From an uncultured Prevotella sp. (lineage in GTDB: Bacteria > Bacteroidota > Bacteroidia > Bacteroidales > Bacteroidaceae): a stretch of 64,000 nucleotides of DNA. Below are positions 13,046 to 16,354 of this stretch, piece by piece. Where the stretch lies: NCBI GenBank assembly GCA_944319815.1, contig CALUEX010000050.1, forward strand, positions 13,372 through 77,371. Reading direction: 5' to 3'. The translations under genes and the position numbers were made by a program. Each line of letters starts with the position of its first letter. The first letter of the stretch is position 1. The notes beneath the pieces were generated by a model. That model was not told the origin of the DNA. It did not search any database and was given only the letters and a program-made list of their open reading frames with translations.

Positions 13046-13107
13046 TAGTTAAAGAACTTCAAGCAGTTACCGCTCGTTTCACTCACTAAGGAGTTAAAGA
13101 CAAATGC
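13046..13107 (+). repeat. Dispersed intergenic 'AGTTAA(A/G)G' repeat, copy 1
   Basis: Ungapped 49/62 identity with 16743-16804; related copy at 44621-44686. Confidence 0.75.
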
Positions 13108-13395
13108 TTTTTCCTTTGGGAAGTTAAGGTGTTATGAAGTTAAGATAACGTAAGTTCTGCGTAATCCGCTACATTACATTCATTGTTCCATCCCGTAAAA
13201 TCCAATAAAGAACGGCATTCGTCATCCATATACCACTAAGAACATAAATTCATAAATCTTTTCCACGATTTCGTAACGCCGCGACATGGCGTTTTGCTTA
13301 ATTTTGCACAAGGATAAAACACCTGGGCAACAACGAATGCCTTTCAACAAATCCCTGTGTGGTTTATTCCCTTGCAGACAACAAAAAATAATGTT

Positions 13396-15294
13396 ATGGA
13401 AAAGAAAACTATAGCTGTAACAGGTATGGCGTGCGCCGGATGCGCTGCCAACGTGGAAAGACGACTCAACCAGCTTAAAGGCGTTGAGTCGGCAAGTGTG
13501 AACTTTGCGGCACGCACTGCCCTTGTTGATTACGACCCTAAGGTAATCACCCCGAAAATGATGAAAGAGGAAATCATCAAGGCCGGGTACGACCTCGTGA
13601 TTGACGAGGACGAGTCTGTCGAGAAAATCGAGAAGACCGCTTACCGACGTTTGGTAAAAAGAATGATAACCTCATGGGTGATAGCGTTGCTTACGATGGG
13701 CATATCGATGGGATGGCTCGAAATAGGCGGGAAAAACGCTGCCAACCAAGTTATGTTGATACTCGCGTTGCTCAACATTGTTTATTGCGGCAGCCAGTTT
13801 TACGTCATTGCCTGGAAACAGCTCTGCCACGGCACGGCAAACATGGACACACTCGTTGCCATGAGCACAGCCATATCGTTCGCGTTCAGCGTGTTCAACA
13901 CCTTCTGGGGCGACACGTTCTGGGGTGAGCGCGGCATAGACAACCATACTTATTATGATGCCTCGGTCATGATTATCACGTTCGTACTTACCGGTCGCAC
14001 GCTTGAGGAGAGGGCGAAGAAAAGCACGGCGTCGGCCATACGCGCCCTGATGGGGCTTGCACCGAAGACGGCACGCCTCGTCAGCGGTGACAATACGGCA
14101 GAAGTGCCTATAGCAACGCTTGAAAAAGGCGACATAATCGAAATCCGCCAGGGCGACAAAGTGCCGGTAGACGGAACGGTGACTGCCGGTGAGGCGTACA
14201 TCGACGAAAGCATGATAACGGGCGAGCCTACCCCCGTTTTGAAAACGACGGGCGACAAGGTGTTCGCCGGCACTATCGTAAAACAATCCTCGCTCCGCTT
14301 CCGCGCCGAGGAAGTAGGCTCGGCCACGATGCTGGCCCAAATCATAAAGATGGTGCAAGAGGCCCAGGGCAGCAAGGCACCAGTGCAGCGTGTGGTAGAC
14401 AAAATCGCGTTGATATTCGTCCCTACGGTGCTGGGGCTTTCCGTGCTTACGTTCGTACTGTGGGTTACGCTCGGTGGTGAAGCCATGCTGCCGCGGGCCA
14501 TACTGTCAGCCGTTTCGGTGCTCGTCATCGCGTGTCCGTGCGCCTTGGGGCTTGCCACGCCCACCGCTCTGATGGTAGGCATTGGCAAGGCGGCACGCAA
14601 TAACATCCTGATAAAGGACGCCACGGCGCTTGAGGAAATCCGCAAGGTTGACGCCCTCGTTATCGACAAGACCGGCACGCTCACCATTCCCAACAAGGAC
14701 ATCGACTTCACCAAGGCTGCCGACCTACGTCTTGAAGAACGAGAGACCCTGAAGCCGCACGCACGTGAAGCCATGGAGGCATTGCAACAGGAGGGCATCG
14801 AGGTCTACATGATAAGCGGCGACAAGGACGAGGCCGCAAGTTATTGGGCGAAAAAGGCGGGTATTAAGCATTGGCGCAGCCAGGTGATGCCGCAAGACAA
14901 GGAAGACCTCGTAAGAAGCCTTCAGGCCGAAGGCCACCACGTAGCAATGGTGGGCGACGGCATCAACGACACGCAAGCGCTGGCCGCCGCTGACGTAAGC
15001 ATCGCCATGGGCAAGGGAACGGACATTGCCATGGATGTGGCGCAAGTTACGCTGATGGGCACAGACCTTAGGCGAATACCAGATGCCATAAAACTGTCGC
15101 GCGACACGGTGGGGATGATAAAGCAAAACCTGTTTTGGGCTTTCATATACAACGTCGTCTGTATTCCGCTCGCGGCAGGACTGCCTTACCTGTTTGGTGC
15201 CCACTGGCAGATAACTCCCATGTGGGCAAGTGCCCTAATGGCTTTCTCGAGCATAAGCGTAGTATTAAACAGCCTTAGGCTGAAACTTAAATAG
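13396..15294 (+). CDS. copA: Cu(I)-type P1B ATPase (CopA-like) lacking the N-domain
   Basis: N-terminal GMACAGC, TGE, CPC, DKTGT, SGD, GDGINDT, FIYN and MAFSS transmembrane motifs; only 19 aa between DKTGTLT and ETLKP; start ATG 13396. Confidence 0.85.
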   Translation: MEKKTIAVTGMACAGCAANVERRLNQLKGVESASVNFAARTALVDYDPKVITPKMMKEEIIKAGYDLVIDEDESVEKIEKTAYRRLVKRMITSWVIALLTMGISMGWLEIGGKNAANQVMLILALLNIVYCGSQFYVIAWKQLCHGTANMDTLVAMSTAISFAFSVFNTFWGDTFWGERGIDNHTYYDASVMIITFVLTGRTLEERAKKSTASAIRALMGLAPKTARLVSGDNTAEVPIATLEKGDIIEIRQGDKVPVDGTVTAGEAYIDESMITGEPTPVLKTTGDKVFAGTIVKQSSLRFRAEEVGSATMLAQIIKMVQEAQGSKAPVQRVVDKIALIFVPTVLGLSVLTFVLWVTLGGEAMLPRAILSAVSVLVIACPCALGLATPTALMVGIGKAARNNILIKDATALEEIRKVDALVIDKTGTLTIPNKDIDFTKAADLRLEERETLKPHAREAMEALQQEGIEVYMISGDKDEAASYWAKKAGIKHWRSQVMPQDKEDLVRSLQAEGHHVAMVGDGINDTQALAAADVSIAMGKGTDIAMDVAQVTLMGTDLRRIPDAIKLSRDTVGMIKQNLFWAFIYNVVCIPLAAGLPYLFGAHWQITPMWASALMAFSSISVVLNSLRLKLK

Positions 15295-15308
15295 ACTTTA
15301 TTTCTTTA

Positions 15309-15356
15309 GGAGTTAAGGAGTTATGTAGTAAAGTAGTTAAGACATTAGCCTTTTCA
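15309..15356 (+). repeat. Dispersed 48-bp intergenic repeat
   Basis: Reverse complement of 36668-36715 with 2 mismatches in 48 bp. Confidence 0.85.
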
Positions 15357-15357
15357 T

Positions 15358-15386
15358 TCCCCTCCCCTTGGGGAGGTTGGGAGGGG
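15358..15386 (-). repeat. REP-like CCCCTCCCAACCTCCCC(A/G)AGGGGA palindrome
   Basis: Same motif as the two copies at 48042-48065 and 48095-48118 on the + strand. Confidence 0.75.
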
Positions 15387-15450
15387 AATGGATTACCCGG
15401 ACGCTCAGACTGAGCGTCCCTACTTTAACTACTTTAAAAAAACTCCTTTA

Positions 15451-15643
15451 AACGTCAGTTCGGTATAATGTTAATGCCACATTGATATGGGAAATTACCC
15501 CTCTGTAGGGACATAATTCATTATGTCCGCACGTTCTGGAAGAACGTTTTTATTGACATAGCCTACTTATACGCCTCTCCGCGACGTGCGGACATAATAA
15601 ATTATGTCCCTACAGAGGGTGTTTTCTTATACCGAACTCACGT
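15451..15643. repeat. Nested inverted-repeat element (REP/MITE-like)
   Basis: Outer IR ACGTCAGTTCGGTATA / TATACCGAACTCACGT; inner ~37-bp IR (15497-15534 and 15584-15620) whose arms are GTAGGGACATAA..TTATGTCC hairpins. Confidence 0.8.
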
Positions 15644-15661: not shown

Positions 15662-16354
15662 TCAATATCCCGGTCTCTTTTCAGCCGATACAGTTACCTG
15701 CACGCTGAACGATGGATTGAAGTTATACCTAACGGCGGCCCCGATACGGTCGCCGATGGCGTTCAGGTCATAAAGCGGCATTGGCATCGGCGTATGCACT
15801 ATTGACTTCTGCCCGAACAAGTATCCCTCCCAATGCTCGTCAAACTTGTATCCCAGCACTGCGTTCAGCCCTGCGTCATGGTAGGCGTCGTGCGCCCAAT
15901 ACATATTATTGAGATAACCGCCTACGGCGATTGACAATTTGCCGGTAAGCGGAACGGCATACATTGCGGCCAGACTCTGCGTGAAACCAGCACCGCGCCA
16001 AGGACTGTCGCCAAACGTAGCGAACACCGACGCACCAAGATTGACATTCAGCCCCGGATGCAACCGCCAATCGTAATACCCCATCCAGTCGAACGGATAC
16101 ATATTTATATATGTCTGCCCCAAGCCGTTCAGTACCGGCAAATGCAAAGAGTCGGTCGGTGCAAAGCCCCCTACCCCATAGCCGTTGCTAACGTATATGT
16201 CTGTAGAAGCGTCCCTGCCGCCGACAATGACGTTGGCCGGTTCAGCCAGAACCACGCCCGTGGTATCAGCCACAGGCGCAATGCCCTTTACTTCCTGGGC
16301 ACTTACGCCAGCCGCACCCACACATAACGCAAATATAAACGCAAGCCTTTTCAT
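15662..16354 (-). CDS. Exported hypothetical protein, possibly an outer-membrane beta-barrel
   Basis: Signal peptide MKRLAFIFALCVGAAGVSA; alternating aromatic beta-strand pattern (AVLGYKFDEHW, AVRYNFNPSFSVQV). Confidence 0.6.
   Translation of the reverse strand: MKRLAFIFALCVGAAGVSAQEVKGIAPVADTTGVVLAEPANVIVGGRDASTDIYVSNGYGVGGFAPTDSLHLPVLNGLGQTYINMYPFDWMGYYDWRLHPGLNVNLGASVFATFGDSPWRGAGFTQSLAAMYAVPLTGKLSIAVGGYLNNMYWAHDAYHDAGLNAVLGYKFDEHWEGYLFGQKSIVHTPMPMPLYDLNAIGDRIGAAVRYNFNPSFSVQVTVSAEKRPGY

Follow-up and report, generated by a model that had tools for sequence, protein, structure and literature searches.

P-type ATPases carry a cytoplasmic headpiece of actuator (A), phosphorylation (P) and nucleotide-binding (N) domains which, to our knowledge, is treated as universal for the superfamily, and textbooks begin the Post-Albers cycle with the binding of ATP by the N domain. 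Here we describe a copper-pump gene that departs from this plan. It lies within a 64,000-nucleotide stretch of contig CALUEX010000050.1 from an uncultured Prevotella sp. (the whole stretch, numbered from its first letter, is referred to below as the window), and its predicted product is a CopA-type P1B-1 ATPase with a linker of 19 residues where the N domain should be.

The closest described systems are the CopA-type P1B-1 pumps: Archaeoglobus fulgidus CopA (3J09 and 7R0G), Legionella pneumophila CopA (3RFU and 4BBJ), Escherichia coli CopA and human ATP7A/B. The Prevotella protein shares with them the CxxC of the HMA domain, the helices MA/MB and M1-M6, and the CPC, YN and MxxSS membrane motifs, as well as TGE in the A domain and DKTGT, xGD, Lys and GDGxND in the P domain, with phmmer E values of 1e-127 to 1e-141. 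It also shares the copper-regulator locus in which the full-length CopA of other Bacteroidota is found. It differs from all of them in the loss of the entire N domain and the presence of the linker in its place.

A second point of comparison is provided by the capless (C0) members of the haloacid dehalogenase (HAD) superfamily, which in the Burroughs/Aravind classification include MDP-1, the FCP/SCP phosphatases of the carboxy-terminal domain (CTD) and the phosphatase domain of polynucleotide kinase. The four core motifs are present in the Prevotella pump and no substantial cap insert lies between motifs I and II, as in the C0 group. The Rossmann-like core of both carries the DxT nucleophile, S/T, Lys and acidic GDGxND of HAD enzymes. 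At the C1 cap position both have no more than a minimal insert, so that solvent, or a large or unusual substrate, can reach the aspartate. In contrast to the C0 enzymes, which are soluble phosphatases, the Prevotella core is the P domain of a membrane pump with an A domain and an ion pathway, and its cap, the N domain, was lost secondarily. By analogy, the pump may functionally resemble a capless HAD core mounted on a transporter.

The third comparison is with cation pumps supplied with small phosphoryl donors. SERCA with its nucleotide site blocked by fluorescein isothiocyanate (FITC) still transports Ca2+ on acetyl phosphate. Acetyl phosphate has likewise been stated to be a substrate for phosphorylation of the Na,K-ATPase (PMC2217063). 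The proposed likeness is that, as in Na,K-ATPase and SERCA given acetyl phosphate or p-nitrophenyl phosphate, the aspartate would be phosphorylated without binding of an adenine nucleotide. Those enzymes, however, have an N domain and use ATP as the physiological donor, whereas in the Prevotella pump the alternative route would be the sole one. We found no paper on a natural N-domain-less P-type ATPase or on Prevotella CopA in a literature search whose coverage mostly excluded subscription journals.

The N-domain position in the Prevotella CopA

The pump is encoded by a single long open reading frame (ORF) that is open on the forward strand from 13357 to 15294, and translation from the ATG at 13396 gives a protein of 632 residues (P0001; coordinates of all features are given in Table 1). 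The initial annotation, made from the sequence alone, had described the HMA CxxC, TGE, CPC, GDGIND, YN and MxxSS motifs as intact and in frame, and this is indeed the case. The A domain is matched by Pfam E1-E2_ATPase over residues 221-402 (E = 5e-59), and both the P1B-1 set of Cu(I) ligands (CPC, YN and MxxSS) and the P-domain set of P-type ATPases (D424KTGT, S474GD, K502 and G520DGIND) are complete. In an alignment of 46 short and nine full-length sequences the invariant residues are C13, C16, G276-E277, C380-P-C382, D424-K-T-G-T428 and T430, together with G475-D476, K502, G520-D-G-x-N-D525, Y585-N586, M615, S618 and S619; the catalytic core is still invariant when the alignment is widened to 130 sequences. 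The protein scores 528 bits against the subfamily model TIGR01511, above its cut-off of 397, and 529 bits against the CopA equivalog model NF007952, below its cut-off of 1316. By sequence and fold the product of the 13396-15294 ORF is predicted to be a P1B-1 CopA minus the N domain, one of the defining features of the family and of the P-type superfamily as a whole, and so a variant rather than a plain member.

Exactly 19 codons separate DKTGTLT (14665-14685) from ETLKP, as had been noted at the outset, and several measures agree that these replace the whole N domain. The distance from DKTGT to GDGxND is 96 residues, compared with 180-293 in 102 full-length representatives, and the spacings are distributed bimodally, none of them falling between 115 and 180. 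The Pfam Hydrolase model is matched in its C-terminal half only (profile positions 88-191 of 191), and TIGR01511 and the other NCBIfam P1B models each match in two stretches, skipping the N-domain part of the profile. Alignment with Archaeoglobus CopA, which the initial annotation had proposed as a check, gave the same picture: using phmmer, residues 3-454 of the query correspond to 3-438 of the 3J09 chain and residues 449-630 to 533-712, leaving ∼95-105 residues of the solved N domain without a counterpart. In this alignment IPNKDIDFTKAADLRLEERETLKP sits over KGKPEVTDLVPLNGDERELLRL, so that the linker would be a remnant of the first hinge strand and of the beginning of the first helix in the N domain. 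In all, 19 residues take the place of an N domain of ∼110, and the SEHPL (His-Pro) and GxG nucleotide-binding motifs are lost with it. Nor is the domain present elsewhere in the ORF or nearby. A 122-position hidden Markov model (HMM) of the N domain, derived from 109 full-length sequences, which matched 12 of 12 positive-control loci with E values of 1e-36 to 1e-42, had no match in the six frames of the 64-kb window.

Modelling with AlphaFold2, based on the alignment of 46 short and nine full-length sequences, gave a structure with the P1B helix pattern, the A domain and a Rossmann-type P domain, at a predicted local distance difference test score (pLDDT) of 76.6 and a predicted template modelling score (pTM) of 0.67. 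Foldseek places this model on the CopA/ATP7B structures 7R0G, 7XUK and 8Q73 with query TM-scores (template modelling scores) of 0.73-0.78 and E values of 1e-35 to 1e-41, and the CopA fold is therefore predicted to be retained. The linker is modelled as a strand (430-432), two helices (438-443 and 446-449) and a second strand (450-452) at pLDDT 65-72; in the model it is a hinge-strand remnant plus a short helical turn.

The linker sequence is variable. The motif PNxx[VIT]DF occurs in 55 of 77 sequences of the Prevotellaceae clade, and in some other Prevotellaceae the connector from DKTGTxT to the return strand of the P domain is only 6-10 residues long. We considered whether the linker could be a vestigial nucleotide site, and rejected this because PNxxVDF is missing from 22 of the 77 sequences and from all other short lineages; linkers of only 4-10 residues also oppose it. 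One locus (L077, 58-1080) encodes a short form of the Prevotella type with an extra linker insert of ∼26 residues (…DFTKGDGLDLLVKNEGKKMGESDSNLDIADSM…) and a spacing of 122. It gave the only weak match to the N-domain HMM (E = 0.06), and the linker evidently tolerates insertions.

Conservation in Prevotellaceae and recurrent loss elsewhere

All 77 of the Prevotellaceae-clade sequences examined are of the short form, with spacings of 81-115 residues and exactly 96 in 49 of them. In the genome scan, which took one genome per species, the form was found in isolates of P. conceptionensis, P. corporis, P. brunnea, Prevotella sp. P5-50 and KH2C16, Segatella copri, S. albensis and Hallella absiana, and in many independent metagenome-assembled genomes. 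The best 120 database matches all have lengths of 622-644 residues, and an identical protein is present on 28 contigs from NCBI, ENA and Logan assemblies. The junction itself is covered by contigs from independent runs, among them a 2253-nt contig over 13097-15330, and a 487-nt contig from a chicken-gut metatranscriptome spans 14375-14861, across the junction.

The initial annotation had also argued against simple decay and suggested that selection across Prevotella be measured. Between the window gene and 13 orthologues, the ratio of non-synonymous to synonymous substitution rates (dN/dS) is 0.05-0.10, with dS near saturation. Pairs of Prevotella short forms at lower divergence (dS 0.58-0.72) give 0.037-0.042, as against 0.07-0.12 for pairs of full-length Bacteroidales CopAs (dS 0.56-1.20), which indicates that selection on the protein without an N domain is at least as strong as that on canonical CopA. 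The most constrained regions are the two halves of the P domain (dN/dS 0.03-0.07), with higher values in the linker. Thus, the deletion is clade-wide and under strong purifying selection, and the view that this is not simple decay is upheld.

The short architecture is not restricted to Prevotellaceae. A search of one representative per 50%-identity cluster, from 1.84 billion proteins, returned full-length CopAs at 40-58% identity and six more short clusters (P0131, P0150, P0173, P0177, P0184 and P0212), and a further genome scan added short forms in bins labelled Bacteroidales, Muribaculaceae and Lachnospiraceae (L170, L171, L172, L174 and L200). Maximum-likelihood trees were built from sets of 130 and 143 sequences after removal of the N-domain and linker columns. 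The short forms of Prevotellaceae make up one clade (99 in the Shimodaira–Hasegawa-like approximate likelihood ratio test, SH-aLRT) with P0150 as its sister (98), and each of the remaining short forms is nested among full-length sequences. Strongly supported branches force at least six changes in the smaller set and at least nine in the larger. Placing all short forms in a single clade costs 784 log-likelihood units, and a single origin of the loss is rejected by the approximately unbiased (AU) test (p = 1e-78). The sequence trees thus imply that the N domain was lost independently at least nine times, in Prevotellaceae and in at least eight further lineages. Queries with P0150 yielded no close relative among the genome contigs, and those with P0182, the nearest long form, gave only distant and uninformative matches, obtained through a generic pattern.

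The linker differs from lineage to lineage (DGTD, EGLSKGQDR, EGGFDGRFDHDTKTDR and EGIVTEEGLVVGDR are examples), and all of the independent short lineages keep CxxC, TGE (SGE in one), CPC, DKTGT, the Lys, GDGxND, YN and MxxSS. Two of the additional lineages have many members (40 and 21 at ≥90% identity), which are spread over many contigs, including GCA_034186025.1 and GCA_963610325.1. In the P0184 lineage one near-identical pair gives a dN/dS of 0.19 at a dS of 0.04, which is too shallow to mean much. For one member of an independent short lineage the NCBI name is only ‘HAD-IC family P-type ATPase’. The Lachnospiraceae-labelled bin (L200) has a 766-residue ATPase ORF encoding a CopA without an N domain, with a spacing of 107 and the linker TGEVGSDVPKEDSKEG; it nests in a Firmicutes CopA clade beside full-length Butyrivibrio and Oscillospiraceae sequences, so that the loss extends beyond Bacteroidales. 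The assemblies that yielded the nine lineages are all from gut or rumen. This tentatively points to an ecological link with the gut and rumen, genome sampling being biased in the same direction.

Decay does occur in places. The short-form representative P0212 (616 residues, from Logan contigs) has lost DKTGT as well, reading LVLDGLDDNIKP there, with TGE-like changes at other places, and may be on its way to becoming a dead relic.

One substitution recurs alongside the loss, with modest support. The TGD of the P domain reads SGD in six of the nine independent short lineages (entries concerned include L168, L170, L171, L174, L200 and P0150, as well as the window protein with S474-G-D476), and Ser at this position is found in 8% of full-length forms in the second tree set and 26% in the first. 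Among phylogenetically independent pairs, six differ in the direction T to S, none in the opposite direction and three not at all (sign test, median p = 0.03). This is suggestive only, but lineages without an N domain may have adjusted convergently to its absence through this change.

How a pump without an N domain may be energised

We favour the reading that the protein is a functional pump, probably charged directly at the P domain with neither an N domain of its own nor one from a partner, whichever donor is used. An ancestral in-frame deletion would have removed the N domain at its two hinge strands, leaving Asp424 in an uncapped, solvent-open P domain comparable to a capless HAD enzyme. 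Asp424 would then be phosphorylated without the nucleotide-binding pocket, the E1-E1P-E2P-E2 cycle would proceed through the Asp424-phosphate, and Cu(I) would be exported. The main argument comes from conservation. TGE serves only the hydrolysis of E2P, and K502 and GDGxND serve only the chemistry of phosphoryl transfer. Their invariance suggests that an aspartyl-phosphate cycle is still in use, and on the sequences we consider retention of the phosphoenzyme cycle likely.

The likeliest donor would be acetyl phosphate, an intermediate of acetate formation in these fermenters; Prevotella and other Bacteroidales make acetate by this route. Next would come MgATP held, at low affinity, only by the phosphate/triphosphate and Mg2+ site of the P domain. 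Acetyl phosphate is slightly favoured because it needs no adenine pocket and would offer a reason for repeated loss in fermentative gut anaerobes. If the cycle is retained, an acyl phosphate may be the donor and ATP at the P domain is the next candidate, each by itself short of probable, with other routes making up the rest. The present data do not discriminate between acetyl phosphate and P-domain-held MgATP. Of the explanations offered in the initial annotation, the best reading is a pump charged without an N domain, either from acetyl phosphate or from ATP on an unaided P domain, the donor being the part that is inferred.

Several points count against this reading. We know of no natural P-type ATPase that works without an N domain, and the activity, the donor and the direction of transport are all deduced from sequence. 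Acetyl phosphate is also common in bacteria that keep the N domain, and so does not by itself explain the loss. Features that might compensate in donor binding were sought among the conserved differences between short and long forms, and besides the T-to-S change these are few and lie outside the active site. The metatranscriptome contig is modest evidence of expression, given its low depth and possible carry-over of DNA. Finally, a subsidiary or regulatory role for the short form would be conceivable if a full-length CopA were encoded in the same genomes.

The alternative that survives best, although we regard it as unlikely, is that the protein is no longer an energised pump: it would be a passive or Pi-catalysed Cu(I) carrier, a copper sensor or chaperone dock, or a phosphatase, its motifs being kept for structural or conformational reasons. 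With the only known ATP-binding site gone, loss of ATP coupling is the simplest reading; the branches leading to several short lineages are long (0.38-0.54 substitutions per site), which may reflect a shift in function, and P0212 has lost DKTGT too. However, the residues used solely for aspartyl-phosphate chemistry, and TGE, are invariant in the Prevotellaceae clade and in eight further independent lineages, no part of the gene has a lower dN/dS than the P domain, and purifying selection matches that on canonical CopA. K502, D521, N524, D525 and E277 would not be held fixed by a structural role alone. The uncoupled channel or sensor that had been suggested initially is thus hard to square with invariant DKTGT, TGE, Lys and GDGxND in at least nine lineages without an N domain. 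A Pi-catalysed cycle without net energy input is a possibility that overlaps with this alternative.

Supply of the N domain in trans, also among the initial suggestions, appears more improbable still. Here a separate N-domain protein would dock on the P domain, or a full-length P1B partner would deliver ATP across a dimer. In its favour, a dimeric P1B ATPase has been reported (PMC13677743), and the CopAs of Bacteroidales fall into two clades, with Phocaeicola in both, so that a second P1B pump in Prevotella is conceivable. Against this, the N-domain HMM found nothing in the window or in the ±4-kb flanks of ∼65 Prevotellaceae loci. A profile of 20 Bacteroidales N domains, set to detect stand-alone domains of 66-205 residues among 5.8 billion proteins, gave only 44 matches, none on more than two contigs and most on short contigs; the two that were inspected are a piece of a broken copA beside a transposase and an ORF 155 nt from a contig end. 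No stand-alone family was therefore found in this search, which was seeded by exact words while N domains are divergent. None of ∼85 loci labelled Prevotella, Segatella or Hallella from two scans is full length, although in Phocaeicola, Bacteroides, Alistipes and Muribaculaceae the same scans did find full-length members of the two Bacteroidales CopA clades. The recovery of short forms alone speaks, weakly and indirectly, against a full-length P1B paralogue in these genera. The sole long form with a Prevotellaceae label, from a Prevotellamassilia timonensis bin (L221), belongs to the other clade, and labels in that bin series are unreliable. In addition, nine independent lineages would each need a partner. 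The window, the locus flanks and the protein database thus give the in-trans explanation no support.

That the gene is a pseudogene, that the deletion is recent and private to one strain, or that it is an artefact of assembly has only the prior oddity of the architecture in its favour; the initial annotation had named the last two as outcomes that would undo its claim. All three are refuted by the same deletion in 77 sequences from isolates and many independent metagenome-assembled genomes, the intact frame, dN/dS values of 0.04-0.10, the identical protein on 28 contigs and the run contigs that cover the junction.

To return to direct charging at the P domain, the wider proposition that gut anaerobes repeatedly evolved P-type pumps that are not ATPases, energised by a small phosphoryl donor such as acetyl phosphate, is one that we put forward only tentatively and with more doubt than belief.

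The copA locus and what the short form means

The features of the gene and its neighbours are collected in Table 1.

Table 1. Positions in the window of the pump gene, its motifs and the adjoining genes
Feature	Position	Strand	Remarks
CopA-type P1B-1 ATPase gene (predicted), N-domain-less	13396..15294	+	632 aa plus stop, no internal stop; ATG 13396 is the start common to orthologues (MEKKT...)
N-terminal HMA metal-binding domain	13408..13593	+	Pfam HMA, residues 5-66, E = 1e-16; C13xxC16 at 13432-13443
TGE dephosphorylation motif, A domain (T275-G276-E277)	14218..14226	+	G276 and E277 invariant in 55 and in 130 sequences
CPC transmembrane Cu(I) site in M4 (C380-P-C382)	14533..14541	+	Read from sequence; invariant
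DKTGTLT phosphorylation motif, catalytic Asp424	14665..14685	+	D424, K425, T426, G427, T428 and T430 invariant
19-residue linker IPNKDIDFTKAADLRLEER in place of N domain	14686..14742	+	19 codons between DKTGTLT and ETLKP
P domain, C-terminal half	14743..15069	+	Return strand ETLKP 14743-14757; Pfam Hydrolase, residues 441-533
P-domain sites S474-G-D476; K502; G520DGIND525	14815-14823; 14899-14901; 14953-14970	+	G475, D476, K502, G520, D521, G522, N524 and D525 invariant
M5-M6 Cu(I) ligands Y585-N586; M615-A-F-S618-S619	15148..15252 (15148-15153; 15238-15252)	+	Invariant columns
HMA-AraC one-component regulator, 189 aa	12449..13018	+	N-terminal MxCxxC (MVCDRC) domain fused to AraC helix-turn-helix (HTH); 377 nt upstream of pump
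Convergent downstream gene, 229-230-aa protein	15662..16354	-	N-terminus MKRLAFIFALCVGAAGVSAQ, signal-peptide-like by eye only; no Pfam match

Only two neighbours of the pump are conserved, the upstream regulator and the downstream 229-230-residue protein, and neither resembles an N domain. The regulator is matched by Pfam HTH_18 and HTH_AraC over residues 99-176 and weakly by the NCBIfam CopZ model over residues 4-62. In 23 loci short copA is immediately preceded by a full-length homologue of the regulator (37-50% identity), and homologues also precede full-length copA in 18 loci of Bacteroidota, including Phocaeicola, Paludibacter, Flavobacterium, Chitinophagaceae and Cytophagales. The short gene therefore sits in an ordinary regulator-copA locus of the phylum, and the HMA-AraC protein looks like the usual copper sensor of that phylum, with the role played elsewhere by CueR, CsoR or CopY. 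The 229-230-residue gene adjoins short-form copA in 23-28 Prevotellaceae loci and adjoins no long form. It may be a mere synteny partner of the pump, or its product may be a copper-related envelope protein.

In several Prevotella and Segatella species (loci L029, L030, L035-L037, L042, L055, L056 and L058) a tblastn match to the HMA domain of the pump begins 210-430 nt ahead of the ATPase ORF, suggesting that directly before the pump there is either a distinct CopZ-like HMA gene or another stretch that codes for HMA; the window locus has no such match.

Repeats rich in AGTTAAG (GGAGTTAAGGAGTTATG...) lie on both sides of copA, at 13085-13144 and 15296-15341. In chicken-gut runs their contig depth is 20- to 170-fold above that of the gene, and apparent joints skip ∼2.2 kb; they probably belong to a family of intergenic repeats present in many copies in Prevotella. 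The possibility that copA is a mobile cassette was rejected, since the joints that skip ∼2.2 kb stem from these repeats and not from an empty site. Downstream of the gene there are GC-rich hairpins at ∼15362-15390 and ∼15400-15421 that look like terminators, followed by a 36-nt inverted repeat (15499-15534 and 15584-15619) whose arms are 97% complementary and separated by 49 nt, each holding the palindrome GGACATAAT..ATTATGTCC.

A CopA without an N domain is real, conserved and unexpected, and runs counter, in a very common gut genus, to what textbooks treat as invariant. Indeed, an abundant group of genera in the human, chicken and ruminant gut (Prevotella, Segatella and Hallella) has only this form at its canonical copper-efflux locus. 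Proteins of this kind are at present named as ordinary copper ATPases or generic HAD-IC ATPases, and the finding thus bears on annotation, as it does on the copper tolerance of dominant gut commensals under copper-supplemented feed.

How such pumps are energised is a question that can be tested with standard assays. If the P domain alone suffices, with either ATP or an acyl phosphate, the minimal P-type pump would be redefined and a naturally simplified scaffold would be available for structural and mechanistic work; the alternative outcome would be that copper is handled by a P-type fold used in a new way. If gut anaerobes have indeed evolved pumps driven by a small phosphoryl donor, these would be the first natural exception to the A-P-N architecture, and the nine or more origins of the short form, together with its fixation in Prevotella, Segatella and Hallella, would identify it as an adaptive switch in energy coupling. 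Were the donor an acyl phosphate, copper export in these organisms would be tied to fermentative flux and not to the ATP pool.

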